A stretch of 64,000 nt of DNA from Protoeuglena noctilucae. Its lineage: Eukaryota. Below, piece after piece: positions 86 to 62,421 of the stretch; position 1 is the stretch's first letter; every line of letters starts with the position of its first letter. The position numbers were made by a program, and so were the translations under genes. The stretch spans positions 186,001 through 250,000 of the forward strand of contig OY253685.1 of assembly GCA_958009085.1 (NCBI GenBank). The letters run 5' to 3'. The notes under the pieces are model-generated. The model did no database searches. It saw only the letters and a program-made list of their open reading frames with translations, and was not told where the DNA came from.

Positions 86-1290
86 TCAAACACCTCCCCT
101 GGCCTGCCGCATCGCCTGCCTCGCGTAGATGGCACCGGACCAGGCCGTGGTGCCCACCGCTGCCCATGACAGGCCTTGCACGGTCACTTCGAGTGTAGCG
201 ACGCACGACTGGGGGTCGCCCCACGCCACAGCCCACCACTGCAGTGCGGGAGAGGGGGCTGCGGTGCAACATTAGGCTCGGCCTTGCAGTTGCCCACGCC
301 CACGCTCTGTGCAGCAGCCTCACCTCCCCCGCTTGTGCAGCACACTGGCCCAGGGCCGCCGCTCCCAGCGCCAGCTGCAGGCACGTGTTGACCTTGCTGA
401 CCAGGTGGGGCTCGACGCGACGGGCGGCAGTACCACTCGCCTGGTCCCTCCCACCACTGCCACCACTGCTGCCACCACTGCCACCCTCACCCCTCTCACC
501 GCCGCCCTTACCGCCCCCGACCCTCCCAGCCCCCTGCGCCCCCCGCAGCGCAGCGTCCACTTCAAAGAACGCTCGCCACCCGCGCCACCTGCCCCCCAGC
601 TCCGCGTGCCGCAGGGCCAGGGCCCCGAGGACCAGCCCCGTGTCCCTCGCCAGAAACGCCCCCACCGCCCACCCCGGGAGCAGCCCGTGGTGCAGCAGGC
701 CCATCGCCGTGCCCGCCACCAGCGCCTTGTCCGCGAGGGGATCCAGATACGTGCCCAGCGTCGACTCGAGACGATACCTGCGGGAGGATAGGATACAGCG
801 CCATGCAGCACGTGGCGTAATCACCCAAATGGCTGGCATGCGTCACCATCGACACCACAGGGCCGATATGCAGGTCCTCGTTTTGCTTATTGCAAAACCG
901 TCTCGCCTGCGAGCCAAGTAGCCGTCCAGCCAATCGGAAGCACCCGAGATGACCAGGCAGGCGGCAGCAGGGGTCCAGTGCTCCGTGGCGATGAGCCAGA
1001 AGATCCCCGGCGAGGACGCCAAGCGCGCCTGCGAGTTGCAAACAAGGCTCAGGCGCTGCAGACACGCGGAAGCAATCGCTGCAGACAGAGTGCTGCAACA
1101 GCTGCCCGCCGTATGCCTCACCAGCGACACGAGGTTGGGTGCCTGCAACAGCTCGTCCAGCGCAGTCAACCTCCGCGATGTGCAGAATCCTCTGCGCGCG
1201 ACAGTCCATCGATCGCGGCCGCGACAGTGCGCGGAAACGGAGCGGTCGCCGCTCCATATGCTGCATCGTCTGAATCCAGCCGACTGCGAG
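86..1290 (-). CDS. CLS: Cardiolipin synthase / CDP-alcohol phosphatidyltransferase (spliced, >=4 exons; 5' end uncertain)
   Basis: The spliced translation gives PNLVSL|ARLASSPGIFWLI...SDWLDGYLAR|RYRLESTLGTYLDPLADK, the CDP-alcohol phosphotransferase motif DxxDGxxAR...GxxxDxxxD. It continues VEPHLVSKVNTCLQL and ends TTAWSGAIYARQAMRQARGGV* (TGA 86-88). Confidence 0.85.
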
Positions 1291-1925
1291 CACTAGAGGA
1301 CTGATGCCGGGAGCTGAAGAAGCTACATGCTCTTAACGTTCCCCTGAAAGCGAAGTGAAACGACAAATCCATTCCAAATGCATAACTTCATGCCTCATGA
1401 CGACGGCCCAGACTGCACGCGCTGCTGGCCGCTTCGCACCCTTCCCCCGGCCTCCGCGAGGCCATATTGTGACGCACTGCTTATGCAGCAGTGCTGTTGG
1501 ATCCGCACATCATGGCGCGCGGCTCCCTCGACTACCGACGAAGCGTCTTCGCGCGGTCCCCTTAATCCGTCTGATGCGGAGGCGAGCCCACGAGACAGGC
1601 CAGGGTAGCACGAGGGGAGGGTGTCGCAAACAGAACGGGTCTCGAAGATCAGCAGGGAGCCTCGGGGGAGGCGGCGCAGGGGCATGCTAGGGTTGCGGTG
1701 GCTGCCACCAGCTACCAAAAGGTCAGCGCTGCTCACACGTCGTGGCGAGCATGCATGTGTGCACGTAGGAATCACTAGCTCGTTTCAATTCGCTGGGGCC
1801 GACTGGCACCACGCGGCGCCAGAGGTCAGCGTGACAGAAACTCCGTGCTCTCACGCAGCCTCAGTACACGAGTGCAAAGCAAGAGCAATCCACTGCTGCT
1901 TGCGCCCCTAGCAGCTCTCGTCATG

Positions 1926-3478
1926 TCATCGCCCGAGGGAGCCCTGAAACAGCCCGCTGAAGAGCTGTGGGTGCGGGCTCGCGTCCGCCAGGGGCACGGG
2001 TGCCATGAAGTTCACGAGCTTCTCCAGCACCTTGTATCTCAACTGCGATCACGAACGACAGGCTAGCAGAGTGACGCGGCGTTCTCCGCTCCCCATCATG
2101 ACACACAAATAAATAAGAACGCATGTTCTGTGACACGCCTCTGCGTGATGTGCCGCCCACCTTCCGCCCCTTGCTGGCCCTCCGGTCCCGGGCCTTGCGC
2201 CTTTTCTGCGCCTCCATGACTGCCTTCGCGGACCCCGTCTTGGCCAGCCCGCTCTCCAGGAACTCCTTCAGGAGCGTGCGGTAGAACTCCGCATCATCGA
2301 ACGTCTCTGGGTCGCCCTCGGTGCCCGGCGCGTGGTCTGCAACGTCTGCAAGCGATTAATAGCGGCATGTGAACACAGAAAGGAAGACAGATGGGACCGA
2401 GTGTCTGTAAGCGCATAGCAACTGAGGCCCGCTCGCCTGCGCCGCTCTCCGCGCCGTCCGCATCAGGCCTGCCCGGTCCGCACAGGGCGACTGTGTCCCG
2501 CGCCGGCAGGCGTGTCCGAAGCACGGCCTCTTCGCCCTCCGCCATGTGATGCCGGACCTGCTGCGCCACGCTCTGGTGGATGGCGCGCAACGTGCCGGGG
2601 GCCATGCTCTGGTGCGAGCGCTTGTACCAGCGATCCACCGACTCGTCCCGGAAACGACGCAGCGACTCTTGCCGACGCTCTGCGGCCAGACGACGCGGGA
2701 ATCGCGAAAACAAAGCGCCGCCGCAGCTGTGCGCGGACGTGCTGACCAGGCGTGCTCTGGCCCTCACCGAGGCGCTGCCACAAATCCGGCGCAGCGAGAT
2801 CGTGCGCCGCCTGCTCGTCGAGCGCAGCGGGGTGCTTGAGGCTCCGCGTGCCCGGGTGCCGCTCCGCGAGGGCGCAGAGGAGGCCGTCCATCGACGCGAG
2901 CGTCGACTTCGCCTCCGACGCGAGCTCGCCCAGCAGCTGGGACGCGGGCTGGTCTTCGCGAGACATCCAGCGCACCGCCTCGTGTTTGGGGAGACGGTTC
3001 GCCCCAGCGACGCATGTTTGCAGCAGGATGCGGACTCCCAGGAAATTCTCGTACAGGTGCCGCTGAGAGGCGACGGCGGAACCCTGCAAGAAGACAGGGG
3101 TGTTTGTTGCATCCTTGTCACAGCGCGAAGTGTACGGCAGGCGTCGCAATGCGACCAGCGAGACGCGCAGCACTGCCGGCTGCCACGCCCTTCAGGACAC
3201 GTGTACGCACAGACACTGGCTCGCCGCGCGCGCCTATCCATGGCATCGGCATGCTTGTTTGCAAAGGTATGCGGTGTCCAACGGCACGTTCGCGCAGAGA
3301 CTCTCGCCTTTTCCTGCTCACGGCGCCGCCGCTCCCTCATGTCGCTTGCCAGCGCGCCCGCGTCCTCATCGTCCCCCTCCATCGCATGGTCCTCCTCCTC
3401 ATCGACTTCGCTACTCGACGGCGCCCCATCCGTCCCCGTATCTGTGTCGGTGTCGTCATGCTCGGGGCTGTGGCTCAT
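1926..3478 (-). CDS. AATF: AATF/Bfr2 (TRAUB) SSU-processome protein, 5 exons
   Basis: Acidic N-terminus, then EK|GSAVASQRHLYENFLGVRILLQ...ANRLP, DPETFDDAEFYRTLLKEFLE and DRRASKGRK|LRYKVLEKLVNFMAP, the signature C-terminal TRAUB motif. Confidence 0.9.
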
Positions 3479-3710
3479 GGCTGCAGGGATTGCCGCCGAA
3501 GGAAACTGGTGGATTGAAAGTGCAGGCGACAGGGTAGTGGTGCCGGGAAGAGAATGCATTCCACAGATGGCGTGGGGCCATCTGTGTCCTGCTCAGGCTG
3601 TTTTCCTGCACACTTCCTCGCGTTTCACAACCCCTCTGAGCGGACACCTGATTTGCGCCGCTTGTGCGCGGCTTCTGTGCGTCAGATGGCAGCTATCCGC
3701 TAGCTGCACC

Positions 3711-4614
3711 ATGCCTTCCGCCTACAGCCTCTCTGCGGAGGCCTACCTCAAGGCGCTCCTTCACGGGATCAAGTACCCCCACGGCGCAGCGAACGGGCTG
3801 CTGGTGGGCCGCGTGACGGGAGACACGGCCAACAAGGAGGTCGAGATCGTGGACGCGGTGCCTCTCCAGGTGCCCGCGCGACGCAAGAGGGCGGGGACAG
3901 AACCACGCCATGCTCTCTCTTCGCACGGCCTTCCGCCCCGATCCCGCGCAGCACCATGATGTGGGATGCTCGATGGCGGTGGATGTGGGTTTGAATCTCC
4001 TGACCGCGCACCTGAGCGCGAGCAAGCCTGAAATGTCCGTGGTGGGTCTGTACCAGTGGGGCGTACGGAGCGCCAACCGCGACGTCGCTGGGCCGTCGAG
4101 GAGAATAGGTGACTCCCGCTTACGCATGGCGTCGCTTTCCCCGGTTCGCGCTCGGTCCGCGTCAGGATTTGACGCACAGGGTTCCCGTGCCTTGCAGCCG
4201 CCAAGCTGGGGTCGGAGGCGTGCATCCTCGTGTTCCAGGCGTCTCAGCTCCCCGAGTTCTACTCCGGCCAGAGCGCCAAGGTGCTGGAGTGCTTCACGCA
4301 AGCCGGGGGTTCGTGGGAAAAGGGAGCGAAGCTGCAGGTCCCTCCAGGCGAGGCGGGGGGCGCTGGGGATCGCCTTTGGCCGCGAGACAATCACGTACAA
4401 CATTGTACAGCAACATCGGGAAGATCGCGGCCCGTGATACTTCGCACGCGCGGCGTGGCGCTTGCAGACGCGTGCTCCCCGCTTTCTCCTCTCAGATTCC
4501 CTCGCGATGCTGAAGGAGGAGGTCCGGAAGGGCTCTCATGGGTCGATCGTTGACTTGGACGACTGGATGGACGGGGTCGCGCCCGCCTGGCTCGAGCAGC
4601 GAGTCGCAGAGTGA
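3711..4614 (+). CDS. EMC8/9: ER membrane protein complex subunit 8/9 (UPF0172), 4 exons
   Basis: MPSAYSLSAEAYLKALLHGIKYPHGAANGLLVG...IVDAVPLQ|HH, VVGLYQ and C-terminal IVDLDDWMD match the EMC8/9 pattern (AYxKxxLHxxKYP...DxVPLxH...VDFDxH). Confidence 0.88.
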
Positions 4615-11200: not shown

Positions 11201-12356
11201 CATCAGCCTCGCTTTTCTCCTCTCGCTTCCGACGCCGCGCCGCCCGCTCTTCGCGCGCATCTAACACCGCAGGCCCCTTCTCCTGACCACCACCCCCACC
11301 CACGCTAGCAGCTGTCATCCCCCGCCCCCCGTCCGCAGACTCCGCAGCTCGCGAAGCAGCCCCCCGCTTCGGGTTCCGCCCCCGCGGCTGCCCTGCCGCC
11401 GCTGCGCCAGCCCCACGCACCCCCGCACCCTGCCCGCACCCCGCACCCCCCTCTGCCCCATCGCCATCCCCGCCCCTGCCCGCCTGAGCCCCAGCACTCG
11501 CAGCAGGGCCTCCCCGCTTCCTTAAATTCCTTGCCGGGCCACTCGCCTCCACCTCGCCACCCTCACCCGCACCCTCAGCCTTGCCATTAGGCTTGCTCCC
11601 GTCCGCTTGCCCCGCCCCCTCCTCGCCTCCCTGCCCCTTCGCCGCGGCCCGTCGAGGCCGCTTCCTCCCCGCAGCGTTCTCCTCTTCTGTCGGCCCATCC
11701 TGTGCTCCCCCCGGCATGCCCTGTGCCCCCTGCCCTCGCCTTCCCGCTCTCGCCCCCGCCCCCGCCGCTATCGGCCCCACCGCCGCCTCCGCCGTCGCAC
11801 CCCCCACCCCCGCTCGCCCCGGCGTCGTGGTCCGGGCCCGAGTCTTGCGGGTGCTGGCTGGCGCAGGGCTAGCCTCGGAAACAGCCTTCACAGGAGACCG
11901 GGAGCGTAGTGCGGGTGCACGTCCCCGCTGCCCCTCGCCCCTCGCGCGGCCGCGTGCACCGGCAGGCGCCTCCGGCGCTGCGTCTGCGGGCTCCGTCGGC
12001 GGTGGCGGTGTCCGGGGGGCGTTCCGCCTCGGGCGGGCCGTCGGAGGGCTGGCGGACATAGTGGCCTCCCGGGACGGGCGCTGCCACTGCACGGCGCCCG
12101 CATCCTGGGGCGCGTCTGCGAAGCAGAAGCGAAGACAACGGAATGTTACATGCGTTCGCTGCGCCATCGGGGCCAGCGCGAGACCAGCGGCGGCGGCCTG
12201 CGTGCGGGAATGAAGCGTGCCGCGCTCGCCTGGAATACTCGCGAGCAGGTCCCGCAGCTCCCTCTCCATCCGGTTCTTCTTTGCCGGAGTATTTTCTGGC
12301 TTCGGTTGCTCGGCCTCCGGGCCGGCCTGCCGCTTGCGCTGCGACGCCGCGCCCAT
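5208..12356 (-). CDS. Tify/Jas-like x2 + PHD finger + GNAT histone acetyltransferase (IDM1/ROS4-family-like) with long low-complexity termini
   Basis: Two Tify-binding-type domains (CACSSCK..VSTSEFEEHGG..RRPSDSIF; ILCACCDKVVSCSAFEAHAG..RAPYDNIF). PHD finger CLLC..MCDLCDREFHVGC..WFCSPAC. GNAT region LQESFDPI..VFGSELAELPLIAT..RRQGH..LSLPA..TWRDGFGF. Confidence 0.85.
6421..6680 (-). repeat. Coding ~30-bp tandem repeat (10-aa units G[A/G]A[Q/A]SAGMGxG) in the PHD-GNAT C-terminal tail
   Basis: Units such as cccatccccgcactctgtgc recur at about 30-nt period. The translation is GAQSAGMG/GAASAGMG repeated ~8 times. Confidence 0.8.
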
Positions 12357-14746: not shown

Positions 14747-14883
14747 CGACGCTCCGTGACGCTCTGAGACACCGTGAACGGTTCATTCAGAGTAGCTAAT
14801 CAAAGCGTACAAGTGTTACAGTCTGTCTATCGCTGCCTCGAACGGGACCATCGCGTTGTGCAACTTGGCATACTAGTGAGACG

Positions 14884-23445: not shown

Positions 23446-23460
23446 TGGAAACCCGGTCAT

Positions 23461-35200: not shown

Positions 35201-36351
35201 CTGCTGACTCGCTCCTGGGGCCCTCGTCCCTCCTGGGGTTTCAGGCGAGCAAGCACGTGCTGCGCTGCGCTGTGTTGTGCTGTGCTGTGCTGTGCTGCAG
35301 ACATGGGACTTATCGCATGCCAGCACAACTGGCTCTTGCTTAGCACTACTGCCACACGACACGCACCCTCCCTCCCTCAGCAACAACTCGCAAATCTCAC
35401 TCGCATCCCTCCGCCCCTCGACTGCAGGACGCGGCGTCCGGGTGTGCATCGGGCCTCACGCCCCGCTCCCTGCCCCCCAACGCGGCCCCCTTCATCCCCC
35501 AGAGCCTCAGCCGCACCTCCGCCCCGGGCGCCCCGCCCCGCCATCCGATGAACCAGGCGCCGCTGGACGCCGCGCGTGGGTCGCCCTATGCGCCCATACA
35601 GCCGAGCCAGGGCCGGGGCCGAGGCACGGGCCTTCCGCGCCTGCCGCCCGGCCAGCACACCCAGGGTTTCTTTGAGCTGGACGGTGCGTCTCAGTACCCG
35701 CCCCACAACGGCAACCCCGACGTGTACGCGGGCGCGGGTGGGGGTAATGTGTCCCAAGGCAGGCACTCGACGGACTCGTACTACGGCCCGGCCTCTGTGC
35801 TGGGCGATGCCTACTGCACCCCTCAGCTCCTCCCGGGGCCCCTCGCCAGCGAGCTGCCCTTCTCAGACGCCCAGCTGGCTGCCCTGCACGCCTTAGCGGC
35901 GCAGCTGGCGGCGAGCAGTGACGCGGGGGCTGGGCATGGGCAGGAGGCCCAACAGGGGCAGCAGGGTGGCAGGTGAGGGGCGGTTGGGGTTCTAGGAGGT
36001 GCTAGGGTGTGGAGGCTATGGTAAGGAGTGGTGAATGGTCACGGTGAGCGGTCGTGGCGAGTTGGGACCTGGTGCCTGGGCGAGCTTGCATGGGTGTGGG
36101 TGGAGGTGTGCCGGGCGACCTGCGCTGCGACCAGCTCATGTACTCTGGCGCTTGATGCTTAGCATGGAATGCGAAACAATGGAAACGCTTTCCCCCGCAG
36201 TGGCGCCCTGTGGAGCCACAACCACGGCCCCCTGGCGGCGGCTGCTGCCTTACGCATGCTGTGGGCGAGTGCAGAGGAGAGCGGGGACGAGGGCTATGCC
36301 GGGGACAACCTGAGCTTGCTCATGCGACGCATGGGCATCGCCAGGGACTGA
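32234..36351 (+). CDS. Pentatricopeptide-repeat (PPR) protein with two PPR clusters and a low-complexity C-terminus (5' end uncertain)
   Basis: PPR-type repeats: PDIKLINAAM, GLIPDVYTFSSLITVLSREQRVSEACRMFMGM, VVPDQHVVCSMITAL, PNVMCCNALLGAYSKCQQTDHAMALLDWM, and PDAISYNT|VIALLARKGHAEQALHVYRRMVQHGVSPN. Confidence 0.85.
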
Positions 36352-41698: not shown

Positions 41699-44600
41699 CT
41701 ACCCCAGCGTTAGCGCCTGGTCACAGATCTCCCTCGTCTCTTTCAGGTGGATGCTGAGGCTAGCGGTGGCCGGGCTGGCAGAGGCGGGCCTCCCGCAGTA
41801 GTGCACCCGCCGTGGCTCCCGGCCCATGCGCGCGCACTGCTCCCTCATGGCAGCCGACAGCCTCGGCTTGACGTAGTTCCACGCCCCCATGTTCTTAGGC
41901 TCCTCCTGACACCACATCACCTCCGCTCCCTCGTACCGCCCCAAAATGCCCGTCAGCTTGTCGTGAGGGAAGGGCGCCACTTGCTCCAATCGCACCAACA
42001 CGATGTCCCGGATACGACGCTGCCGGCGCGCGTGCGACAGCTTGTAGTACACCTGACCGCAGCAGATGACCACGCGTCGCACCTGGTCGGCCGGGACCAG
42101 GTAGGGTTTACCCGTGCTGGGGTCCACGCCACTGTGGGGGATTTGAATAATAGTGGGGGTTTGAATAAATGAGCGAGGAGAGGGTTGAACGTTGTCAGTG
42201 CATTGTGACGGCAAAGGGTGAGGGATGAGGAAGACTCTCTCTGCTGTGAGGGGTTAGTGTGCATGGGCGTGGAATGGTCAGTGGTGTGAGTGCACGGCCT
42301 ACCAGCAAGCAAGTAACCGTCCCTCACTGATGCCTGGTGTTGTCCGATGGGTTGTTATCGTCGATGATCCGCTTGAAGAAGTGGCCCGGGGCGAAGTCGG
42401 CGAGGGCGGAGGTGCAGGGGCGGTGGTGGAGGAGGTACTTTGGGGAGAAGATGATGCAGGGCTTGGCGAAGGGGAGGTTGACCTGGCGACGCAGGGCGTG
42501 GAAATACTGGGCGGGCGTGGATGGCACCAGCACGTACATGTTGGCATTACGCTCGCTGTTGCGCCGGAGGTAGCTGGTCATCAGCTGCGTCCAGGACTCC
42601 CGCGTCAATGCTGCGTCCTCTGCCAGGCCCAGCTCCTGCCAGACCAGGTCGACCGCCTCGGTGGGGTTGAGGCCTTGGTCCTCCAGGAGACGCATCACAT
42701 CTGTGTGGGGGAAGAGAGGGTGGGGGTTGAGGTGAAGGTGGCAGTGGGGGTGGCAGTGAGGGAGGCAGTGGGGGTGGTGATATGGGTGGCAGTAAGGGTG
42801 GCAGTGGGGGTGGCAGGGAGGGTGACAGTGGGAGTGGCACTTAGGGTGGCAGTGGGGGTGACAGTGAACATACACAATGGACTGTCCTTACCCTTTGTTT
42901 AACAACAAACAAGGCACCAAGCCACAGCCACCCATGCCCATGCAACCTCCGCCACCACCACGCATCCTCACACCTGCTCGGTTGAGGTGGGGGTCCCCTC
43001 CCTTGCGTGTGATCTGCTCGAACGTGTCAGAGATGAGTTTCAGGTCCGCGGGGGAGTTGCCAGGCAGGAAGTCCGCATCGTCGTTCAGCAGCTGCAAGAA
43101 ACGCTCCATGCGAGCGCTCGAGTGGTCCGGCCCCTGCCCGTCATACCCGTGGGGCAGCAGCATGACCAGGTTCGTCTCCTGCCCCCACTTCTCCTCTCCC
43201 GATGATATGAACTCGTCCACCACCACCTGTGCCCCGTTGGCGAAATCCCCGAACTGCGCCTCCCATATCGTCAGCCCCCTCCGCCGCATGCCCAGGGAAT
43301 AGCCGTACTCGAAAGCCAGCGTCGCGCCCTCGTTCAGCACGCTGTTGTGAAGCATGACCGGCTCCTGCCGGGGACTGATGTTGCTGAGGGGCACGTATCG
43401 CTCGGCGGACGTCTGGTCAAACACCGCAAAGTGGCGCTGGTTGAAGGTGCCGCGCTCCACGTCCTGACCGGACAGCCGGACCTTGTAGTGGCCGCGGTTG
43501 AGGCCCAGGGCGGGGTCGAAGTATCGATCCTTTTCCTCCTGGGGGGTAAAAGGACGAGCGGGAAATGAGGTGTCGCATGGTGCGATCTTAAGATGGTGGG
43601 AATGGCTGTAGATGGCTGACTTTTGACAAAGCAGCAGAGGCATGACAGGGGTGCGGGGAGGGTTGTTAAAGGGCCACCATCCATCGCCACCCATCCACCC
43701 CAGTCATCCCCCTACTTTACTCGCCTGGCTCAGGTCCTCCCAGTCCGGCGGCTTCACCCCCTGCCGCAGCGCCAGCGTCCCGAACGCCAGCGCCTCCGCC
43801 ATGGCCCAGTCCACGCGAGACGAGGGGCCCTCCACCATCTTGCGCCGGCGGGCGTACAGGTCCGCCACCGTGTCGTGGAGCGTGATGGAGTCAGGGACTG
43901 CGAGAAGAGATGAGAGTGGTGTCATGAGAGTGTGATGGAGTCAGGGACTGCGAGGAGACCAGTGGAAGTGGGAGTGGTGTTTTGCAGAGTGACCAAACTG
44001 ACCAGCTGCATGTCACCCGTGCACGTAGCCATCTCACCCAACCCCTCGCCCCTCACCCGTGCACGTCCTCTCCCCCACCCATGCGAGCGTCGGGATGGGC
44101 AGCCCCGTGTTCTCCTGGTACCAGGTGTCGCTGTCACCCTCCTGGGCAATGGCAGCCAGGGCGCTCGCCTGCCACGTGTTCGTCACCCACTCTGCGGAGA
44201 ACGAGGAATGGGGAGTTACAAGTTGTAACTAGAAGAGCCGGCTGTGTTGCATCATTAACACTTTCGTTTGTCAACGACCCCTCATCTCCACATCCCACCC
44301 TCACACCCTGACACACTCACAGCAATCCAACACTCTCTCACCCACCTCACCCTGCCACCCTGACACCATCACAACACCCCCACACTCCCTCACCCGACTC
44401 CCCCTTCGTGAACTCCCCCGCCCGGTGCTGCTCGTACCCCTTCTCCAATTCCTGCACCAGGTGCCTCTGCCACATGTCCACCTCCTCCTGCGTCACCACC
44501 CCCTCCGCGATCAGACGCTGGCGGTAGCGGTGCAGCACGGGAGGGTGGGCGCGGACGCGGGCGTACGTTATGGGGAGGCAGGGGGAGGGGTCCTCTAATT

Positions 44601-47218
44601 CGTTGTGGCCGTGGCGACGGTAGCCGACGATGTCCACCACCGCGTCCGTCTGCAGAGACGGGGTGGGGTGCGTAGGAGAGAGGTGGGGGGCGTGAGTGCG
44701 TGCGTGTTGGGTGGGTGACGGCGGTGGGGTGACGTGCGTCGACGCGAGTGGTGGTGCTAATTGGGTCGGATTGGGTGGAAAGCAAAGCAGTAACGATCGC
44801 AGCGATGGCAATCGTACCTCTCTGCCACCTGTCAGTCGCCCCATTCACTCACTTGTACCGTGCACCCCACCTCGTTCGCCAACTAGTACTACTACCAACT
44901 GATAGTACCACTACCACTCTAAACTCACCAGGAACTTCTGCCGGAACTCCGCCGCGATCTCGCAGGCCTTCCACACGGCCTCGGGGTCGTCCGCATTGGC
45001 GTGCAGCACAGCGGCACCGATGACCTTGGCGATGTCGGTGCAGTGCACCCCGGACCGCCCCTCCCTGGGCACCGTCGTGAAGCCCACTTGATTGTTGATC
45101 ACCACGTGCACTGTGCCGCCGCTCGTGTACCCGGGGGTGCCAGATAGAGACAGTGCCTCATAGACGCCCCCCAAAGCCGCAAACGCAGCGTCGCCGTGGA
45201 TCAGCAGCCCCATGATGCGCGACTGCCGGTCGCGGTCGGTGCGGAGCGATCGCAGGCGGGCCTGCTGCGCCCGCACCATGCCCATGACCACCGGCCCCAC
45301 CGCCTCGAGATGGCTCGGGTTGGGAGCCAAACTGAGGTCTAACTGCAGGATGCCGTCCTCGTCATGGGGCTCGGCCGCGGCACGCGCGTCGTCCGCGCCG
45401 CCCTCCCGCCGCACCCACGAGGGGAAGAAGGAGTACTTGCCCTGGTTGCCCATGTGATACTTCACATCCCCCACGTGCACCTCGCTAAAGGCGCCCTCCA
45501 TCTCGGAGCATATCAGGCCCATGGGCTTGCGCAGCACGTTGTGGAGCACGTTCAGGCGGCCGCGGTGGGCCATGCCCATCTCGACGCGCGTCACGCCCAG
45601 CTCCGCGCACCGGCGGGCAATGGCCTCCAAACCTAAAGGGGCGGTGGAGTTGATGTTGAGTTGAGGGTGAACAGGATGCGGTATATGTGCTGATTGCATG
45701 GGCAGGAGTAGAAAGGGTGGAGGATAGGTACGGGCGGAGTGGGTTTTCAGCACGGTGCCCCGCTAATCTTTGCCAGAGTCTCACCTGGGATGACGGCCTC
45801 GCACCCCTCGATGCCGAATCGTTTGCTGGACGGGAAGTGCTTCCCCAATACGTGCTCGAAGGCGTGGACTCTCATGAGGGAGAACAGCAGGTCTCTCCTC
45901 ACGTGGCGCGGCAATGGACGCCGATGCTCCACCGCCCTCGCCAGCCACTCCTGCTGCTCGGCCGTGTGCAGGTGCGTCATCTCCGCCGTCAGCGTGCGGC
46001 TGCGTGACGGGGAGAGGCAGCGACCGAGGTGGGGTCACCAGGGCACCAGGCATGCAAGTGGCGTGGACGACGCGTGGGGACACGCACTGGCCAGCCGAGC
46101 CATGGCATCTATGAGTCGCATACCCCCAGCGCGACTACGACCTCCCCGCCCCTCACCAGTACGCGTTGCGCATGAACTCGAACAGCTCCGGCAGCTGCCA
46201 CCAGTCCTGGGGCTCCCTGGCCTTGGCACGGTCCCAGGGGTTCGGCTTCACGCCCTCCTCGGCCGGCCGCTGCACGGCCCCGTTCACGAACCACCGCCGT
46301 TCTGGGTCCACGGCACCCTCCAGGCCCAGGCGGTCCGCGAGGTACTCTGCGCGGGCCTGCAGCGTGGCGCCCTGGGGGTAGTCCTCAATCAGGGCCAGCA
46401 GTTGCGTGGCGTCCGGCCACACGTACTGGTTCTTTTCGTGGAAGTAAGGGCCGCGGCCGGTCAGGCCCGGGCGGCGGAGGGGGTCCAGGACGGCCACGAG
46501 GTGGCCCTTGGTGCGGAACTGCTGCACCATGCCCACCACCTGGGGCCAGGGTGCGGGGCGAGGATCGTCAGGTTGCCGCCGCGGCGATACGAGGCATGGT
46601 TGGGATGGAGATGGCCAGCTCGATAGAAATGCCAACGAGTGGTCCGACGATTAGGGCGGTGAGGGCTCCGGGGCCGCAAGCGCTCGCCTTGAGGGTGTTT
46701 GCCACGACGTCACGTTCAGCATCGGGCCCGGGCGCGGACGAGCTCGCGTAGAGCCCCGAGGCCGCGCGAGGGAGTACTTCCGCCTTTACTGCGCTCTCTG
46801 GACTCTCGGGCGAGGCCCCGTTCGCCGGAGACGCGACGCTTGGGGCCGTGGCAGGGGCACCGGACAGCAGGCGAGGAATCCCCGCGCTGCGACGGAGGGA
46901 CGAAGTTGAGCCCGTGAGGAGAAACGGGAGGCGCTACAGGCGCTGGGACGAGACCCGACGCGGACGCATGGGCATCGGAACTCGCTGCACCCATGCATCG
47001 ACGCTGGGCCCTCCAGAAGCCCCGGCAATCTTGGCCAAAAAGTTCGCGATTGCTGACGCTTGTCCTACAGAAGCCAGATCCGGCGCAAAGACGTCCACGG
47101 TGAATCTTCCGCGCACCACTGCGGCGCGGCAAGGCGCGCATTTGCTCACCTGGTCAGGGCGGTCCCCACGCGTCCCTGTCCCCTGGCTCCCCCACCGGCT
47201 CGCCAAATATGCAACCAT
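41699..47218 (-). CDS. 2-oxoglutarate/2-oxoadipate dehydrogenase E1-like protein (divergent), ~11 exons
   Basis: [91 protein letters not shown], and [12 protein letters not shown]. Confidence 0.92.
42717..42866. repeat. Intronic 12-bp minisatellite (GGGTGGCAGTRR-like units)
   Basis: About 12 imperfect tandem units such as gggtggcagtgg, gggtggcagtga and gggtggcagtaa lie inside an E1 intron. Confidence 0.85.
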
Positions 47219-47746: not shown

Positions 47747-50461
47747 CTAGCGCACGGGGACGATGTCATCGATCTTCAGGATCATGCGCACGCACTCGGC
47801 CGCGAGCGACAGGGCCGACGACGACACGAGCAGCGGCTGGATGACGTTCTCCTCCCACATGTCCGACACGGTCCCCTTGCGGACGTTGAGGCCCGCGTTC
47901 TTGTTCCCCCGCGCGTGCTCCTGCCTGCGAACGCGAGACGGGACGCGACCTCGTCGCCCCCCCGGCTCCATGCCACGCAGCGCGGCCGGTGCACCGCGCC
48001 CCGTTCCCGCACCTGAGCGTGGTCACGATGTGGATGGGGTCCAACCCCGAGTTCTCCGCCAGGGTGTAGGGGACGATCTCGAGGGCCTCCGCGAACGCCC
48101 GCACGCACACGCTCTCCATGCCCTGCAGCGTCTGCGCCCACTCTGACAGCCGCAGCGACACCTCGACCTCGGGGGCCGCCCCGCCGGCGATGAGGTAGCG
48201 CTTGTGGACAATCGACCGCACCACGCACAGCGCGTCGTGCAGCGACCGGTCCGCCTCGTCCAGCATGAGCTTGTTGGAGCCCCGCAGCAGCACCGTGGCG
48301 GTGCGGCCCTGGAAACCCGGCTGCCCCTGCGAGCGAGAGAGTTGGGATGGGTCCGCGTTAGTACAGCGACTCGCTGGGTGTATATCAGCAGGCCTGTCGA
48401 GCACCATGCTCTGCCAAAAGAGCCAACGCGCACCGTCGATGCACAACACCACACCTGCTTCTGGATCCCCACGACCTTGACGACCTTGCCCGCGTCCAGC
48501 GACACCTCGTGGACCAGCGCGGCCGAGGCCAGGCGCTCGGGCTTGAGCGAGTCGACGTGGGCGACCGGGGCGACCCCCAGCGTCTTGGAGATGAAGGCCA
48601 CGTCCTCCCTCTCAATGTCCTTGATCACCATGATCTTGGCCTTGGCCATGTAGTGCAGCGCAAGGTCCGAGACGGCGTCGCGGAGGATCGACTTCTGGAT
48701 GAGCAGCACGTTGCACCCGGTGGCCTTGATCGCCTTCACCATCTTGAGGATGTAGTTGCGCTCCTCCTTCAGGATGCGGTCCATGTCCTTGTAGTCCGAC
48801 ACCACCACGTTCATGTCCAGGTCCGACTTGGGCGGGGAGATGTGGAACTGCACCAGCGCAATGCGGGCGTCCTCGACCCGCGTGGGGGCCCCACCCACCG
48901 CCGACGCCTTCTGCGTGAACACCAGCCCGTCCACCATCTCTGAGTCGTCCACTGCGGGAGGCGGGAGGTGGGGGGTTGGCACATGTCACGGGGGCGATAC
49001 ATGATGCGCAATGCACGCCGTGAAGGGTGCGGTGTGGGGCTGGGCCAGTCTCCGCCGCGCAACGCAGGCTCGCCTGTGCCCCCCTGCTTCTTGACGATCT
49101 TGACGTCCCTCAGGTCCACCGAGTCCGGCCGTGCGGGGTCCATGACGCGCAGGATGCAGTCGACGGCCATGGGGGCCAGGAGCGAGGCGTGTTGGCTGAC
49201 GACCTTGGAGTTGAGGGACGTGGAGGCGGCCTTGAGGAGGTTGGCCCTGCGGGTGTCGGAAACGCGGAGAGCTCGCAAACCAGGCGGGGCGGCCCCGCAA
49301 GGGTGGGCCTTGGTTGTTGTGGTGGCAGGCAGTGGGTGGGCGCCGCACCGGTCGCTCAGGTCGACGGGCTGGGACATGCTGAGGAGGATCTCGTCGGCCT
49401 TCTTGGCCGCGGAGTAGAAGGCGTCCGAGATGACGGTCGGGTGGATGCCCTTCTGGATGAGGTTCATGCAGCGCTTGAGGAGCGAGCCACAGATGACCGT
49501 CACGGTTGTGGTGCCGTCACCCGCCTGCGGATGGCGCGGGCAGGAGAGCGATGTCCCGTTGCGCTGCAAGCCCCGCAGCGACGATGGCTAGGCGCGCAGC
49601 GGCAGGGGCAAGCGAGATGACGCAGCAGCCTCGCCTGCACGTCCTGTGCCTTGGCCAGCTCCACCAGCATCTTGGCGGCGGGCTGCTGCACCATCATGCG
49701 ATCCAGGATCGTCGCCCCGTCGTTCGTAATGAGCACCTCCCCGCTGTCCTGCGCGATCATCTTGTCTGCGCATGGCGGGGACGTGCTAGTTGGTGAGCAA
49801 AGCCCAGCGGCACGTTCGCGCGTGGGCGCGGGACCGGCGCGAGATTCACCCATCCCCCTCGGCCCCAAAGACGTGCGGACGGCGTCCGCGACGGCCTTGG
49901 CGGCCTCGATGTTCGTCAATCGCACATCCTTCGCCTTCGACGCCTCCCTGCGGGTACGCGGCCGCGCGTGAGGGATCTCGGCATGCCTTTGTACGATGGT
50001 AGCTAATAACGATTGCGAAGGGTGCGGCGCGATCGCGAGGAGCGCGGAATCAGGAGAAGGAACGGAGCGACGTGCACAACGGTGCCCCTCGCGGACCCGG
50101 CGAAAGGAGGGAAGGCGCTTAGCACACCACATCATGCAAAGGTCCACGGCGCACTGGCCGGGGATCGCGAGATCTTGTGCCGCCCCTTCCTCGGGACGCA
50201 GCTAGAAATAGTCTGCGCGCTGTTCCCACAGGCCTCGCCCAGGGGACGCGCGGGGTCGCGCGAGCGATCCCCACCGGTATTCCGTCATCCAAACGTGAAC
50301 GCGGAATAGGAAATCTCGCAAGAGATGCGCTAGGGTCCGCGGTAGCGCCTGCCATGGGCAGGGCGGGGCAGATGACCCCGCCACGAACGGTAGAGTCGGA
50401 TGCATCGTATACAAGCTCGCGCTCACTTGAAGGCCCGCTCCTTGGGCTTGGCCTGCACCAT
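47747..50461 (-). CDS. CCT4: T-complex protein 1 subunit delta (chaperonin CCT4), 8 exons
   Basis: [78 protein letters not shown], and C-terminal [14 protein letters not shown]. Confidence 0.95.
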
Positions 50462-51164: not shown

Positions 51165-51169
51165 TTACA
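51165..51169 (-). promoter_or_regulatory. Candidate chlorophyte-type poly(A) signal TGTAA
   Basis: TGTAA lies ~200 nt downstream of the PAS-protein stop. The same motif follows EMC8/9 (4750, +), PrimPol (14816-14820, -) and the CINP-like gene (21912-21916, -), and overlaps the CYBDOM stop (41039-41043). Confidence 0.5.
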
Positions 51170-51367
51170 GGACACGACTGGTGTCTACTTACTGTGTACA
51201 TCGCGATTAACAGCCATCCGCGATGGCTCTTGGTCCGGGGCCCGATCCGGCCCCTAGCGATACGGCCGCGCGCGGCCCGCGCCAGATCCTTAGTTCCCAT
51301 CCCTCAGGACCCCATCGGATCCTATCGACCCATCCCCTGCCGCTTGGGTAACGTCGGATCCCATCCC

Positions 51368-57300: not shown

Positions 57301-60300
57301 GTGGCTGGCGGGCTGCTCGCCGGACATGACAGCGGCCTTGAGGAGCGGGACGTGGAACTGCGACGGGAGAGGAGAGGAATTGCATCGCCCCTTGCCCTGC
57401 TCGCGTACAGAGACCTAGTAAACGGCACCGCGAGTGTCCTCCGTGCCCCGACCATGCAAACACTCTGGTACCATCATTTACGGCACTGAGTGAGCGCATT
57501 GACTCTTACTGTACCATATCATCATAAGAGTAGCCACTGAGTGGCCACTCGGCCTCACCTGCGCGAGTGGGCTGGGCAGGATCTTGTCCAACGCCAGCTG
57601 CCGCTTGTCGACCGTGCCCTCCTCGTACCCGAGGATTCTCTGCGGCGATGGAAAGCGTGGCAAAGTTGATGGATAATGTTGCAAATTGACGAACTGTTGC
57701 AACACAGTGATCTTTTCTGAACGAAGTGCACGTGCGCTGTCTGCGCGCATCGCCGCTCACCGCCAGCGGGTGGTTGGAGTACTGCACTTTGCCCTGCAGG
57801 TCGTAGACCGCGATGCCGTCCACGGCGTGCGTCAGCTCCAGCTCCACCTCCGCCATGGTGCCGTCCCCCACGCCCACTAGCCGGACTGCGGGTGAGGGAC
57901 CGAGGGTTTGTCGGGTTCCACCGGCTCTCGTCACCGGGGAAGGCCGTGCGACACCCACACCACGCTGTTACAGTGACGCTGCAATGCAATGTCCACATCC
58001 ACGCTCTTCACTCTCTTCAGCAGCACTCGCACTGAGGAAAGGGCAAGACACGAGCAGTGACTCACTCTTGGCCCGGACGCGCATGACGTCGCGTCCGAAC
58101 TTGTGCCGGATGCGGCTCTGCAGCTCCACGGCCTGGTCCTCGCCCTGCGCCGCGTCCTCCAGGCCCCCGTCCATGCCCATGGCCTCCTCCTTTTCGCTCT
58201 CCTGCTGCTGCAGCGCCGCCACGCTCTCGGCCACGTGCTCGTCCCACTGCGTCCCCGCCGCACCCACCGCCTGGAAGGTCTGGCCCTGCAGGGCCGCCGT
58301 GTTGAAGCCTGCGAGAGGCGACGAGGGGCGGTAGGGGTTGTGGTTGATGCCTCCTCGCTGTGTGAGGTGTGGCGACAGACAAAGCATGCTTCTGCCATAT
58401 GGTTGCGCTCACGCGCGGTGGCAGCCACTGGTGTCGCTGTGGCGCGTTGCCTCACCCGTGACGGACGCGAAGGCGCGGTTGACGGCGATGAAGTTGCCGT
58501 CCGTCGTCAGCCACGCAATCATGCGGCTGGCGGGGCCCGCTGCGATCAAGGGACGATAGTAAGACACTGATCAGAGCTGTGTGCGGACTTAAAAGGCATC
58601 TGCCTGGCAGGCAGTGGCCAGACAGACACGCGTTACACAGACGTTTGTGTTGTCAAAACAACAAGACACCCACGTGTCCCACGCGATCGCCTCACTTCCG
58701 TCGTCGTCCTCGATGGCGTGCAGCACGCCCAGGTACAGGGTGGACTCGTTGCCCTGGCTCATGCGCGTGATCTTCAGGTCCATGGGCAGCACCGACTTGT
58801 CCTTGCGAACCGCGAGCACCTTGCGGGGGCGGTTGAGCGTCTGGGACCCCGCCTTGGCCGCCCGCAGGTAGCCGTTGTGGCGCTGGGCGAAGGGCGGGGG
58901 CATGATGACCGACACGTTAAGGCCGTCCAGCTCTCCGGCCTTGTAGCCCAGCGTCTGGTTGAGCACTGCGGCAGGGGAGACCCATCAATCGCGCTGCAAC
59001 CACGATCGCTGTGCGTAGCCTGCCACGCGATGCCATCAAGCAACCCCTGGGTCATCCCCAGCCCCGCTCACGTTTGTTGGTCATCTGCACGATGCCCGCG
59101 TCGTTGATGACGATAACGGCGTCCGTTTGGTCGTCCACCTTCTCACTCAGGTCGCCGGCCCCGTTGGCCACGGCGCTCGACAACAACTGGTCCCGCTTGC
59201 GCTCCTCCTGGAGGTCCTCGATCTTGTCCGCCTCGTTGTACAGCCGCATGGCGCGGTGAGGGTCGCCCGTCACCTCCTCCCTGCACACAAGTCAGGCAGA
59301 CAGGACGCATAGTACTATGTGAGCGTGCGCGTGAAGCATGCACATACCAAGCACCAAGCCGGGGCAGCAGGAGGCATAACTCACGTGTACTTGGCGTACG
59401 AGCGGAGGAGCTTCACGTTGTTGGGGTAGCGCTCCGAGAGAGTCTTGAACATCTTGGCCGTCGACGTCTCCACGGCAGCCATTTGCCTGCGGGACGAGGT
59501 CCGGGGAGGGTCGCGGTCGACAAGTGGGCAAGCGGCAGGTGAAGCGAAAGCAGCAGGGAAGCGTAGAGAGCAAGGTTGCCGTGATCGTCTCTCGCCTGCT
59601 GATGTCCGTCACGGCGCTGAACGTGATCTCCTTGCACAGGAGCAGGCGCCAGAACTTGCCGGTCGTCCGCAGCGCGATCTGGTGGCTCGTCTCGGCCGTC
59701 TTGAGCGCCTGGGAGAACTCCATGAAGCTCGCCGTATCCATGGCGCCATCTGCGGGCGAAGGGCGATCGATACCATGCCGGTCAGCAGCTGGGACCCGCT
59801 TAAGGTGACCGGCACGGGCGGGAGTGCAACCATCGGCCGCGCGCAGCATCCTTGGAGCTCGCTCGTCGCTTGGTGACACCAACTTCGGCAAGAGGATGAG
59901 AATGCACAGTATGGCAACAGGCCCGCGCGCTCGCCTGCACCCAGGCCGCGGTCCTGCACGTCGAGCTTGTGGTCGCGCTCGACCCAGTACTGCGCCAGCC
60001 GCACGTTCAGGCCCGCGGGGATTTTCTCGGCCTTGGAGATCATCGCCGTCGCGGCGTTCAGGTCCTTGCGCACCGTCCTGCGGGGTTGCGATGTGACGCG
60101 GGGGTCCAGCTGAGCTTGGGGAGTCCCTTCCACCGAGCCGATGTGCCACCAGGACACATGTGCACGGGCCCTCAGCAAGTCGGCGCGCACAGGCACGGAA
60201 GGGACACGCTCGCGCCGTTGCCCGATAATGACCGCGCTCCTGTCAGGTGTGCACACACCTGAGGAAGTTGGCGTACTGCAGGACGAGGAAGGCGCTGTCC

Positions 60301-62421
60301 GGGAAGGATTGGAGGCCGTACTTGAGCACCGCGTCCGCGAAGGCCTGCTTGTTCGGGTCGTAGTTGCCAAACTCGTCCTGGATGCGCACAACGCGCGCGC
60401 AGATCTGCGGAGGGAGGCGCGAGGGGGCGTGGAGGTGTGCCGTGGCGCACCGCGCTTGCACAAGTACAAAAACATGGCCTCACGCCGCCCACCTCCACGT
60501 CCGCGGGCCTCTGCAGGAGCTTGAAGGCGTCCTCCTGCGCGAAGCCGTTAAGATTGTGGCTGTCGAAGCCCCCGCACACTCGCTGCCACAGCCCGGAGGA
60601 CCTCTGGATGGCCCGCCGGCGCATGGCGAGGTGGCCAAGGACGTACGCCACGGGGGCGCCAGCCGCCATGGCGATGGTGACGCCGGGGACCGGGTGGCTG
60701 ACGAGGCCGAGCACGAGGACCGTCAGGCCCACCCAGGCCAGCGCCGACAGCAGGCCGACCGACCCCGCGTTGACGTGCACCCTGCGCGCGCTCGCGGGGA
60801 GGGTTTTTGGTGGGTCACGGTGTCTTTGGTGTGAGGGCTCCGGACCAACCAAACGCTCAGTGGAGGCAACGCGTTGCGTGCTCGCCTGTAGAAGCGCTTG
60901 TTCCTGACGAAGCCGAAGATGGCCGCGCAGGCGATGACGAGCGTGACCCCGCCGGCCATGTAGCCCTCCCTCCGCCAGATGATCATGCAGGTGACCATAG
61001 CAGCCGTGCCGATGGTCCAGGCGGTCGCGGGCTGGCTGCTGCGGGCGCGGCGGCGCGAGAGGGGCGGTCGGCAAGGGAGCCCATGCCACGCGGACCAGCA
61101 TCAGATCATGTGACCCAGCAAGTGCCACTCGCCTGGGGGCCGCCAGGAGGTGGGTGGAGAGCATGTTGGGGTCGAAGTCGCCGAGGCTGTTGCCGAGGGC
61201 GAGGAGCATCAGGATGGGGAGGGCGAAGTAGGCCACGATGGTGGTGATGACGCCCGACCCTGCTTGCAAGATGGGGTGGGCACCCTCCAGCGTCACACCA
61301 CGGGCGGGAGCGGTGCCCGAGAGTCGAGAGCGCGCTCAGCACAAAAGCACGCCTTACCCGCATAGCACGTGTGGTCCGTGAAGATCTTGTTGACTGCCGC
61401 GCGGCCCTGCGTGTGGGCGTGGATCACGTCGCACGCCAGCGGGCTCAGCAGCACGGCCAGGGCCGGCACGTAGAGGAGCTCGAGAAGCACCGCCCTGCGG
61501 ACGTGGCGGGGCGCGGACGCTGAGCGACGTCAGCGTGAGGTGCGTGCCGTGGCGGGGGAGGCGGGGCCGGTCTCGCTGTGGGTGAAGGGCGTGGCCCTTT
61601 ACCTGAGGAAGACGGTGACGTGGACGAGCGACTTCCATGGCTGCCGCTGGCGGGCGTGGATGGACGCGAGGAGGAGGACCGCGATGGCCAGGGCGAGGGT
61701 CACGCCGGCCGTGGCGAACACGATGGCCTGGAAGATGCTGTATCCCAGCCTGTGCTCGACGTAGGTCAGGTCGAGCCACGCCAGGGCGCCCATCCAGGAG
61801 CCCTCAAACGACCAGTGGAACTGCAGGCGGCGGCAGAAGTGCGTTGAGCACCTGCAGCCAATCGAGCGTCGCTGCACGCCGCCGACGCGCGGCGAGATGC
61901 TCGCCTGTGGGCCCAGGAGCAGTCCGATGAGAACGAGGTAGGGGAATACCAGGGCGACGATCGCATACTGTGGGGAGGGAGCGGGGAGGGGGCGGGGTGG
62001 TTGTAAACGCCGTGGTTCACGTGCCGGCCGCGGCTGGCGGCACACTGGCCGATACACGCGTCCAAGCAATGCTTCATACATAATGACTGCATCCGGCGCC
62101 GCGAACTTCCCCGTCGCGGGTCCCACGCACCTTCCAGCTGGCCGAGTAGCGCTGGGACCCCAGAGCGTACAGCGTCTTGAACAACGTCTCTCTCGCGCCG
62201 CCCTCCTTTGTGAGTATACTGCCCACCCCATCTCCTTTCCTCGTGAAGACGGCATCGTCCGCGGTGGTCTCGGTGATGCCGGACGTGCCTGCGAAAGCAT
62301 GCCAAAAAATCAGGCGCCGGCGACGCATTGGGCGGCCGCACCTATCCGAGCCGGTTCCCACTAGCAAGATGAGCGCGACATTACGCTTACCTGACACGCT
62401 GGGGGCCCTGGATTCGTCCAT
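51368..62421 (-). CDS. Giant multi-pass membrane protein with a TPR-like segment and 3-4 PAS domains (tiny macrocysts TmcB/C / FixL-like FXL family), ~30 exons
   Basis: N-terminal multi-TM region, then helical ERYPNNVKLLRSYAK. PAS domains DAVIVINDAGIVQMTN..LGYKAGELDGLNVSVIMPPPFAQRHNGYL and DGIAVYDLQGKVQYSN. C-terminal TM hairpins end with LLSQLPPSMNVE. Confidence 0.85.

Follow-up and report, generated by a model that had tools for sequence, protein, structure and literature searches.

How often do introns begin with GC instead of GT in the genome of the green alga Protoeuglena noctilucae? The question is raised by a stretch of 64,000 nucleotides (nt) of contig OY253685.1 (assembly GCA_958009085.1, positions 186,001 to 250,000 of the forward strand), hereafter the window. 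GC-AG introns make up 1.3% of the 2.46 million introns surveyed by Iwata and Gotoh (2011, PMC3033335). A first-pass annotation of the window, made from the letters alone, had proposed 22 of them among roughly 110-120 introns, or about 1 in 5-6, all with an invariant donor AG/GCRAG (the slash marks the exon-intron boundary, and R is G or A). We found that abundant GC-AG introns are real here and that their proposed number is verified in part, with a mechanism that would be the known rule of compensation at the donor under GC pressure.

Introns are named here by the window position of the first donor base, and all 22 are listed in Table 1. Every one of the 22 positions reads AG/GCRAG on the proposed strand (19 GCGAG and 3 GCAAG), with C at position -3 in 20 of the 22. 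The paired acceptors are all AG preceded by a C/T-rich tract, and at 19 of the sites the acceptor is a predicted one.

RNA evidence for GC-AG splicing

Direct evidence comes from the assembled contigs of four runs labelled as marine metatranscriptomes, which contain 52-55% of the sampled words of positions 43001-53000, as expected for spliced RNA. The contigs were aligned to positions 42801-62800, where they gave 49 joints, 15 of which were examined at their ends. Thirteen of these 15 are GT-AG and two are GC-AG (48952-49073 and 49525-49634), and both of the latter fall at proposed donors, 49073 and 49634, with no GT-AG placement possible within the ambiguity of the joint. At 49073 the joint is 48951/49074 with ends CT..GC, and at 49634 the joint skips 110 nt, with GC..AG as the only shift that gives splice-like ends; each was found in contigs of four runs. 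Both introns interrupt the gene for CCT4, and the Cpn60_TCP1 profile runs on from position 172 to 176 across the first junction and from 57 to 59 across the second. The spliced CCT4 reading frame has no stop over 550 residues and contains QDVQ/AGDGTT and GGT/VDD, i.e., the two junctions that had been proposed from conserved protein spacing are confirmed by RNA.

Two further GT-AG joints come from two loose contig ends that could be placed in the window; with these, the GC-AG share among readable RNA introns is 2/17 (12%; binomial p = 0.020 against a rate of 1.3%). The first-pass annotation had suggested a check of junctions for use of nearby GT donors or intron retention; both claimed donors that the readable contig joints could test were confirmed. 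Two further loose-end strings, at 58163 and 47873, found no match in the window. The other seven claimed donors within 42801-62800 are probably among the remaining 34 of the 49 joints.

A third site is supported by a letter count. Between genome positions 43537 and 44929, X3 contig 10 has 565 letters, exactly the sum of the modelled exons of the 2-oxoglutarate dehydrogenase E1 (OGDH) gene when the intron starts at 43724 (1+173+135+256), whereas the rival GT donor at 43715, 9 nt downstream, would give 574. As a control, the same arithmetic reproduces the 217 letters across two nearby GT introns. Homologue spacing is indecisive at this junction (153.6 vs 153.9), and the spliced OGDH that includes it has an open frame of 1078 residues, 70% identical to the homologue P0004 over 1043 columns. 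At 46687, elsewhere in the same gene, contig pieces of four runs end at the predicted exon start (46538 or 46541).

Contigs in several runs also depart from the window within OGDH and CCT4 exons (at 43036, 48147, 48611, 48715, and 49227), with loose ends of up to 255 letters. These mid-exon departures may be chimeric contigs, conserved genes of other organisms, or alternative forms.

Protein-spacing evidence

For junctions in conserved proteins, all GT or GC donors and AG acceptors that lie within 60 nt and keep the frame were scored against homologues. All five claimed sites at which protein spacing is informative (906, 27149, 29656, 46687, and 59595) either ranked first or gave a continuous profile. 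In the cohesin subunit gene STAG/SCC3, the donor at 27149 ranked 1/24 against the homologues P0002 and P0003, 12 above the best GT; there the HEAT_SCC3-SA match 34-97 ends one residue before the exon does, the next exon takes up the profile at 100 from its second residue, and the profile can be followed residue by residue through three STAG exons. The donor at 29656 in the same gene ranked 1/48, 13.5 above the best GT, and the tblastn segments of P0002 break at this intron. At 46687, scored against seven chlorophyte and other homologues, the GC donor ranked 1/60, 10.5 above the best GT.

The two remaining sites are read from profiles. In the cardiolipin-synthase-like gene, the CDP-OH_P_transf profile reaches position 50 in the exon upstream of 906 and resumes at 53 in the downstream exon. 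The splice restores the spacing D-G-x2-A-R-x8-G-x3-D-x3-D, which we take to be the motif of this family, and in-phase GT alternatives 48-60 nt further on would add 16-20 residues to the x8 spacer. At 59595, TPR_TmcB positions 15-60 are matched with three residues left in the upstream exon, and 66-97 are matched from residue 2 of the next exon, so that the profile is continuous within 1-2 residues.

Homologue spacing was likewise indecisive at 27896, 25805, and 30978, where, as at 43724, the stretches are unconserved. The junction test placed 25805 at rank 2/15, 0.5 below the best candidate, in an unconserved stretch; 27896 at rank 10/166, in a low-complexity stretch; and 30978 at rank 15/74, in an unconserved region. 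The search with a STAG exon returned three proteins, the TmcB-region exon matched four proteins of the representative library, which were of no use for placing junctions, and a homologue search with the DOMON/cytochrome b561 exon found none. The host's own spliced proteins were not found in the homologue searches, which returned from it only the unspliced open reading frames (ORFs) P0001 and P0124.

Frequency of GC-AG introns

Exon maps and intron counts, and these only, were taken from a dynamic-programming gene finder of our own, trained on RNA-supported exons and then self-trained. It recovers all 22 claimed donors and counts 102 short introns in gene regions, the claimed 22 included; in 42801-62800 it models 46 introns where the RNA has 49 joints, and the nine claimed GC donors there amount to about 18%. 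The denominator of roughly 110-120 introns is thus reasonable. Another 18 GC donors are proposed by the gene finder, most of them with introns too long to be plausible (600-1500 nt). With the eight sites that have independent support set against about 120 introns, the excess over a 1.3% rate is marked (p = 0.0002). A GC-AG share far above the usual 1% or so is therefore secure, at no less than 8 of about 120 introns overall and 2 of 17 by RNA alone, while the proposed share of about 20% is plausible as a figure.

Eleven of the other 14 sites are required by frame, given the exon models, either because the intron length is not a multiple of 3 or because a stop follows the donor (2436, 3307, 4348, 27896, 30978, 35245, 38487, 40108, 59934, 60885, and 61132). 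The 20 claimed introns that were not directly seen in RNA also resemble the 15 RNA-confirmed introns in median length (164 vs 159 nt), interior coding score (-0.158 vs -0.179 per nt), and pyrimidine content of the acceptor tract (0.71 vs 0.75). Shuffled versions of the window have 22.5 +/- 3.8 copies of AGGCRAG and the window itself has 47, a surplus of 24.5 that comes near the number of claimed donors (22). AGGTRAG is in excess as well (34 vs 10.5 expected), and AGGGRAG is not (24 vs 19.2).

Donor flanks and U1 pairing

Pairing with the standard 5' end of the U1 small nuclear RNA (snRNA) was counted over positions -2 to +5, with the consensus taken from Iwata and Gotoh (PMC3033335) and Churbanov et al. 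(2008, PMC2490688). Exactly six pairs were counted for each of the 22 GC donors. Among the 15 RNA-supported GT donors, four make five pairs, nine make six, and two make seven, and the 79 predicted GT donors range from 4 to 7 with a mode of 6. A-2, G-1, R+3, A+4, and G+5 occur together in 22/22 GC donors and in 2/15 RNA-supported GT donors. Restricted to RNA-supported sites, AG/G.RAG is found in 3/3 GC donors vs 2/15 GT donors (Fisher p = 0.012); with the five homology-supported sites added it is 8/8 (p = 9e-5), those five having been proposed because of the motif.

The claim that GC donors have stricter flanks than GT donors therefore stands, and the particular loose GT donors named in its support do not: GTGCC, GTACG, and GTCAG occur in 0/15 RNA-supported and 0/79 predicted GT donors. 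GT donors are looser at -2, -1, and +4 only, with G at +3 in all 15 RNA-supported cases. The 79 predicted ones are mainly GTGAG (46), GTGCG (17), and GTGTG (5), with few others. GT donors (for example at 48012, 49348, 51871, 53018, 53661, and 54428) fall into two classes, GTGAG and GTGCG, the latter making up 7/15 of the RNA-supported and 17/79 of the predicted donors.

These flanks require no special machinery, since a GC donor reaches the typical level of pairing only if all its other positions pair, and the strictness would be ordinary compensation for the C at +2. Ordinary GC-AG introns with compensating flanks were reportedly described by Burset in 2000 and by Thanaraj and Clark in 2001, both cited in Churbanov et al. 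Such a donor would pair with the standard U1 5' end at the cost of one pair for C at +2, and only donors in which A-2, G-1, G+1, R+3, A+4, and G+5 all pair, six in number, would keep the level of pairing typical for GT. Where a donor has such pairing to spare, T and C at +2 may be nearly neutral alternatives, and GC-biased substitution pressure would push this position toward the C share of unconstrained sites. Among fully consensus donors 22 have GC and 18 GT, a C share of 0.55; in intron interiors C/(C+T) is 0.61-0.62, and 0.60-0.67 in a G_Y_R context. The closeness of these shares makes T or C at +2 look near-neutral once the six other pairs are present, and makes a link of GC donors to GC-biased composition plausible.

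As for the motif being invariant, this holds for 22/22 of the sites, which were picked by that very motif; the invariance may in part be a selection effect, as only such GC donors could have been recognised by eye. We would like to note two further candidates from the gene finder that have no exonic AG, both on the minus strand: a 76-nt putative GC-AG intron at 55494-55569 (TCG/GCGAGG, with an in-phase GT 6 nt downstream) and an 81-nt one at 60405-60485 (GCG/GCGTGA). If real, the donors at 55569 and 60485 would break the rule.

Alternative explanations

We consider it likely that the introns belong to the ordinary U2-type GC-AG kind, which in this marine chlorophyte, very rich in GC and dense in introns, has grown unusually common (about 10-20% of introns). 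The rival that survives best grants the enrichment and supposes that sites were over-called, so that many of the 14 otherwise unsupported ones would be a nearby GT donor, another exon structure, or no intron at all, and the share would be 5-12%. A number of observations speak for this rival, and with it against the higher share or the pairing argument. Independent support covers just 8 of the 22 sites, and the RNA-readable share of 12% is below the proposed 20% or so. About 22 copies of AGGCRAG are expected by chance, and the excess is no proof of donors, since the control AGGARAG, which is no donor motif, is likewise in excess (25 vs 10.6 expected). Because of where the 25 unclaimed copies fall (8 in sense exons, 6 in sense introns or untranslated regions, 9 antisense, and 2 intergenic, with the copy at 52029 sitting unused within an RNA-confirmed GT intron), AGGCRAG alone is insufficient as a donor. 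The gene finder is unspecific, in that it yields 5 GA and 8 GG donors beside 26 GC and 62 GT on the minus strand when GA and GG are allowed equally, i.e., this control produces false non-GT donors. In-phase GT alternatives lie near several sites, the introns at 12229, 25805, and 61904 could be coding because they are in frame and stop-free, and the acceptor tracts at 30978 and 60885 are weak (0.50). The RNA contigs come from a single study, with two of the runs from one sample, and minor isoforms spliced from a neighbouring GT donor would not show in contigs. The counts of U1 pairs and of T and C at +2 include the unsupported sites and GC donors that were selected by motif, and a genome-wide rate would be extrapolated from one 64-kb window.

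Nevertheless, we judge over-calling on this scale to be unlikely. No test contradicted any of the 22 claimed sites, both of the claims that RNA could test were confirmed, and the five sites with informative protein spacing all came out first or continuous. The claimed introns match the confirmed ones in length, composition, and acceptor tract, and their number equals the motif excess within error.

A bolder version of the preferred reading would have a chlorophyte near the pedinophytes, unrelated to Micromonas, arrive independently at about 20% GC-AG introns, with T and C at +2 nearly interchangeable wherever six other U1 pairs are present. The cost of the +2 mismatch would then be near zero, possibly through a change in a U1 small nuclear ribonucleoprotein (snRNP) protein, in U6, or in PRP8 proofreading and not in the U1 RNA. 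We regard this as speculative and rather improbable; if true, nature would offer a case in which a +2 mismatch carries almost no selective cost.

The first-pass annotation had itself leaned toward tolerance or a lineage-specific change of the spliceosome (the U1 5' end, the U6 ACAGAG box, U1C/LUC7, or PRP8) that makes C at +2 acceptable and allows a mass conversion of GT to GC. The high GC-AG share itself would fit such a change, as would C being as common as T at +2 among fully consensus donors, and for other algae Iwata and Gotoh suggest base modification or U1 snRNP proteins (PMC3033335). Against this, all 22 GC donors still need every other position paired, as would be expected with an unmodified U1 and as Churbanov et al. 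describe in animals (PMC2490688), and the 11 nt at the U1 5' end of Aureococcus and M. pusilla are reported to equal the universal consensus (PMC3033335). Nothing in the window bears on such a change: an Rfam search of the 64 kb gave 0 matches and hence no snRNA gene. We think it very unlikely.

Hardly any weight can be given to an artefact, whether assembly error or strain polymorphism at +2 or RNA contigs from a similar other organism: the RNA is metatranscriptome contigs with no culture reads, and spliced contigs never display the +2 base, but the contig pieces differ from the window by 0-1 letters over hundreds of bases, four further runs under one organism label (which may be the assembly source) contain 100% of the sampled words of 43001-53000, and 22 independent T-to-C errors at one donor position are not credible.

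Other intron classes and polarity of the change

U12-type introns were considered and rejected, as 0/22 donors read RTATCC and the last 60 nt hold no conserved branch box; a CTRAY branch-like motif is present in 1/15 RNA-confirmed, 3/22 claimed GC, and 11/79 predicted GT introns, with no difference between the groups. Introner-like repeats were likewise rejected, an all-against-all blastn of the 108 predicted introns of up to 600 nt having returned two weak pairs, one of which touches a GC intron through a 23-nt match.

To polarise GT-to-GC changes, metagenomes were scanned with a CCT4 exon, which gave 80 loci. The closest (L001:28-1536 and L002:222-1730) have an exon that is 81% identical and a G+C content of 67-73%; they are co-linear with each other at 99.9% over 1509 nt and have no intron, so either both are complementary DNA or a close relative has an intron-free CCT4. 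Eight of the 80 loci break near the first CCT4 junction, about three codons upstream, and the three inspected (L056, L067, and L072) carry GT donors. The second junction has no break in any of the 80 loci; 7 of them could be scored at neither junction and 11 more could not be scored at the first.

Individual sites and gene content

Table 1. Positions of the 22 claimed GC-AG introns and of the genes recognised in the window.
Feature	Coordinates	Strand	Remarks
GC-AG intron, cardiolipin-synthase-like gene	778..906	-	129 nt; AG/GCGAG; homology-supported
Candidate GC-AG intron, AATF/TRAUB gene	2346..2436	-	91 nt; AG/GCGAG; length mod 3 = 1; TRAUB in downstream exon
Candidate GC-AG intron, AATF gene	3084..3307	-	224 nt; AG/GCGAG; length mod 3 = 2
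Candidate GC-AG intron, UPF0172/EMC8-like gene	4348..4495	+	148 nt; AG/GCGAG; length mod 3 = 1
Candidate GC-AG intron, before long low-complexity ORF	12116..12229	-	114 nt; AG/GCGAG; in frame, stop-free
Candidate GC-AG intron, STAG/SCC3	25659..25805	-	147 nt; AG/GCAAG; in frame, no stop inside
GC-AG intron, STAG/SCC3	26996..27149	-	154 nt; AG/GCAAG; homology-supported
Candidate GC-AG intron, STAG	27695..27896	-	202 nt; AG/GCGAG; length mod 3 = 1
GC-AG intron, STAG	29483..29656	-	174 nt; AG/GCGAG; homology-supported
Weak candidate GC-AG intron, near STAG 5' end	30564..30978	-	415 nt; AG/GCGAG; length mod 3 = 1
Candidate GC-AG intron, downstream of PPR repeats	35245..35427	+	183 nt; AG/GCGAG; read-through stop after 96 nt
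Candidate GC-AG intron, DOMON/cytochrome b561	38487..38909	+	423 nt; AG/GCAAG; stop 32 nt past donor
Candidate GC-AG intron, DOMON/cytochrome b561	40108..40319	+	212 nt; AG/GCGAG; length mod 3 = 2
GC-AG intron, OGDH E1	43539..43724	-	186 nt; AG/GCGAG; supported by RNA contig letter count
GC-AG intron, OGDH E1	46540..46687	-	148 nt; AG/GCGAG; homology-supported; RNA-supported acceptor
GC-AG intron, CCT4	48952..49073	-	122 nt; RNA-confirmed
GC-AG intron, CCT4	49525..49634	-	110 nt; RNA-confirmed
GC-AG intron, TPR_TmcB region of long membrane/PAS gene	59487..59595	-	109 nt; AG/GCGAG; length mod 3 = 1; profile-supported
Candidate GC-AG intron, long membrane/PAS gene	59750..59934	-	185 nt; AG/GCGAG; length mod 3 = 2
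Weak candidate GC-AG intron, long membrane/PAS gene	60511..60885	-	375 nt; AG/GCGAG; stop after 160 nt
Candidate GC-AG intron, long membrane/PAS gene	61039..61132	-	94 nt; AG/GCGAG; length mod 3 = 1; interior non-coding, -0.194
Candidate GC-AG intron, long membrane/PAS gene	61821..61904	-	84 nt; AG/GCGAG; in frame, stop-free, not frame-required
IDM1-like PHD/GNAT protein	7645-10585	-	Pfam
CDP-alcohol phosphatidyltransferase, cardiolipin-synthase-like		-	Pfam on translated exon models
AATF/TRAUB gene		-	Pfam on translated exon models
Cohesin STAG/SCC3		-	Pfam on translated exon models
2-oxoglutarate dehydrogenase E1 (OGDH)		-	Pfam on translated exon models
CCT4 (TCP-1 delta)		-	Pfam on translated exon models
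Long membrane PAS/TPR_TmcB gene		-	Pfam on translated exon models
Glycyl-tRNA synthetase C-terminus		-	Pfam on translated exon models
UPF0172/EMC8-like gene		+	Pfam on translated exon models
PPR protein		+	Pfam on translated exon models
DOMON/cytochrome b561 protein		+	Pfam on translated exon models

Several of the candidates have observations of their own. The exon downstream of 3307 begins at position 5 of the AATF-Che1 profile, which fits the acceptor and not specifically the donor. Downstream of 4348 there is a weak UPF0172 match (profile 159-191, E = 0.03), and PDB searches with both EMC8-like exons gave spurious repeat-protein matches only. The exon upstream of 40108 has a similarly weak Cytochrom_B561 match (profile 36-86, E = 0.027). 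Where a stop soon follows the GC donor, the sole in-phase GT is ATT/GTGACT at 27896, which is a poor donor and lies in an intron whose stop comes 22 nt past the GC donor, and CCC/GTCACC at 38487. The interior of the intron at 35245 is clearly non-coding (-0.277 per nt), and its flanking exons had no family match in Pfam.

The weakest of the 22 cases is 12229, where the flanks have a coding score near zero and the flanking exons no Pfam match. Next to it, at 10755-12113 on the minus strand, lies a 453-codon open frame of putative coding status, which is of low complexity, rich in Ala, Gly, Glu, and Arg, and without a family match; three unclaimed copies of AGGCGAG lie inside it.

In the long membrane/PAS gene, 59934 has an in-phase GT 6 nt upstream (TGG/GTGCAG), and RNA contigs cover the region. 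At 60885 a hidden exon or another acceptor is possible, because the interior coding score is about zero and the pyrimidine tract is 0.50. Through the intron at 61904 runs the unspliced ORF P0124 of a public contig (160 amino acids, 100% identical, 61602-62081 on the minus strand), an example of the intron-containing "proteins" that arise when contigs of this alga are annotated with prokaryote-style gene calling. The 3' end of this gene can be placed as well: at 50785 an RNA contig ends with a plus-strand T run, which is the poly(A) tail of the minus-strand transcript, about 580 nt past the stop codon at about 51368.

The G+C content per 4 kb is 62.8-71.8% across the window. CpG is observed at 0.91 of expectation, in agreement with the little CpG decay that the retained CpG of GCGAG had suggested. 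The gene at 7645-10585 has Tify-domain-binding, PHD, and IDM1 C-terminal/GNAT domains and resembles the plant "increased DNA methylation" protein IDM1, which is of interest beside the near absence of CpG depletion.

Host relationships

The closest named matches of the OGDH are green algal, with 66% identity to Pedinophyceae sp. YPF-701, 64% to Trebouxia and Coccomyxa, and 62% to Cymbomonas, and a relative from a JGI source has 77% identity on the query exon. In a quick OGDH tree with sparse sampling, the window sequence groups with the JGI-source relative (support 100) and then with the pedinophyte (95), beside trebouxiophytes. Judged by these sequences, the host is an intron-dense, GC-rich chlorophyte distinct from Micromonas.

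Consequences for annotation

Gene finders that allow GT only would mis-model about 1 in 5-10 introns in this alga, and annotation of this genome and its relatives should admit GC donors with full consensus flanks. In Emiliania huxleyi, ab initio models with a preference for GT are reported to have mis-predicted junctions in the same manner (Feldmesser et al. 2014, PMC4028052). No new question is opened by the case, as a 2011 paper already reported the phenomenon, tied it to G+C content, and checked U1 (PMC3033335). The few GC-rich algae in which GC-AG introns abound are joined here by a green alga that is rich in introns; because its genes have many introns each, more sites per genome than in Micromonas are available for weighing GC-biased substitution against U1 pairing.

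Comparison with known GC-AG-rich systems

A literature search on GC-AG introns in green algae, Chlamydomonas, and pedinophytes found nothing on this lineage. For other algae, Iwata and Gotoh report GC-AG shares of 39.6% in Aureococcus anophagefferens, 22.2% in Micromonas pusilla CCMP1545, and 7.7% in Chlorella sp., tie them to G+C content, and give the 11 nt of the U1 5' end as unchanged in Aureococcus and both Micromonas (PMC3033335). A more recent preprint reports about 14-17% in pelagophytes, Aureococcus included (bioRxiv 10.1101/2024.10.30.620910), and the supplement of Pucker and Brockington (2018, PMC6310983) has lower annotated rates in green algae, which are pipeline-dependent. Like Micromonas, Aureococcus, and Chlorella, the host of the window is very GC-rich (62.8-71.8% in the window, against a criterion of at least about 64%), has, in the one window, GC-AG introns at about ten times the usual 1% or so, and keeps a canonical AG acceptor. 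It shares with M. pusilla the habit of a marine green alga. In contrast to M. pusilla, for which 0.86 introns per gene are reported (PMC6310983), it has about 100 introns in 64 kb, and among named organisms its OGDH comes nearest, at 60-66% identity, to Pedinophyceae sp. YPF-701 and trebouxiophytes.

In E. huxleyi, a haptophyte (65% G+C) from another supergroup, about 60% of donors are reported to be GC, verified by RNA, with the AG acceptor kept (PMC4028052). The present case likewise has RNA-verified GC donors and AG acceptors, but GT remains in the majority here (15/17 RNA-readable introns), whereas E. huxleyi has a GC majority and GA donors too. U12-type introns are also a minority class other than GT-AG; they differ in having a /RTATCC donor (box as given in PMC3033335) and a branch box, where the introns described here have GCRAG and no such box. 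There is also a likeness to the ordinary U2-type GC-AG introns of animals and plants (<1-1.3%), in which Churbanov et al. found flanks stricter than those of GT donors and conversion of GT to GC as an evolutionary process (PMC2490688): here too AG/GCRAG is closer to the U1 complement than the GT donors are, at a frequency about 10-20 times higher. Both the abundance of GC-AG introns in GC-rich algae and the stricter flanks of GC donors are thus already published, and the window is another case, in a different and intron-rich chlorophyte.

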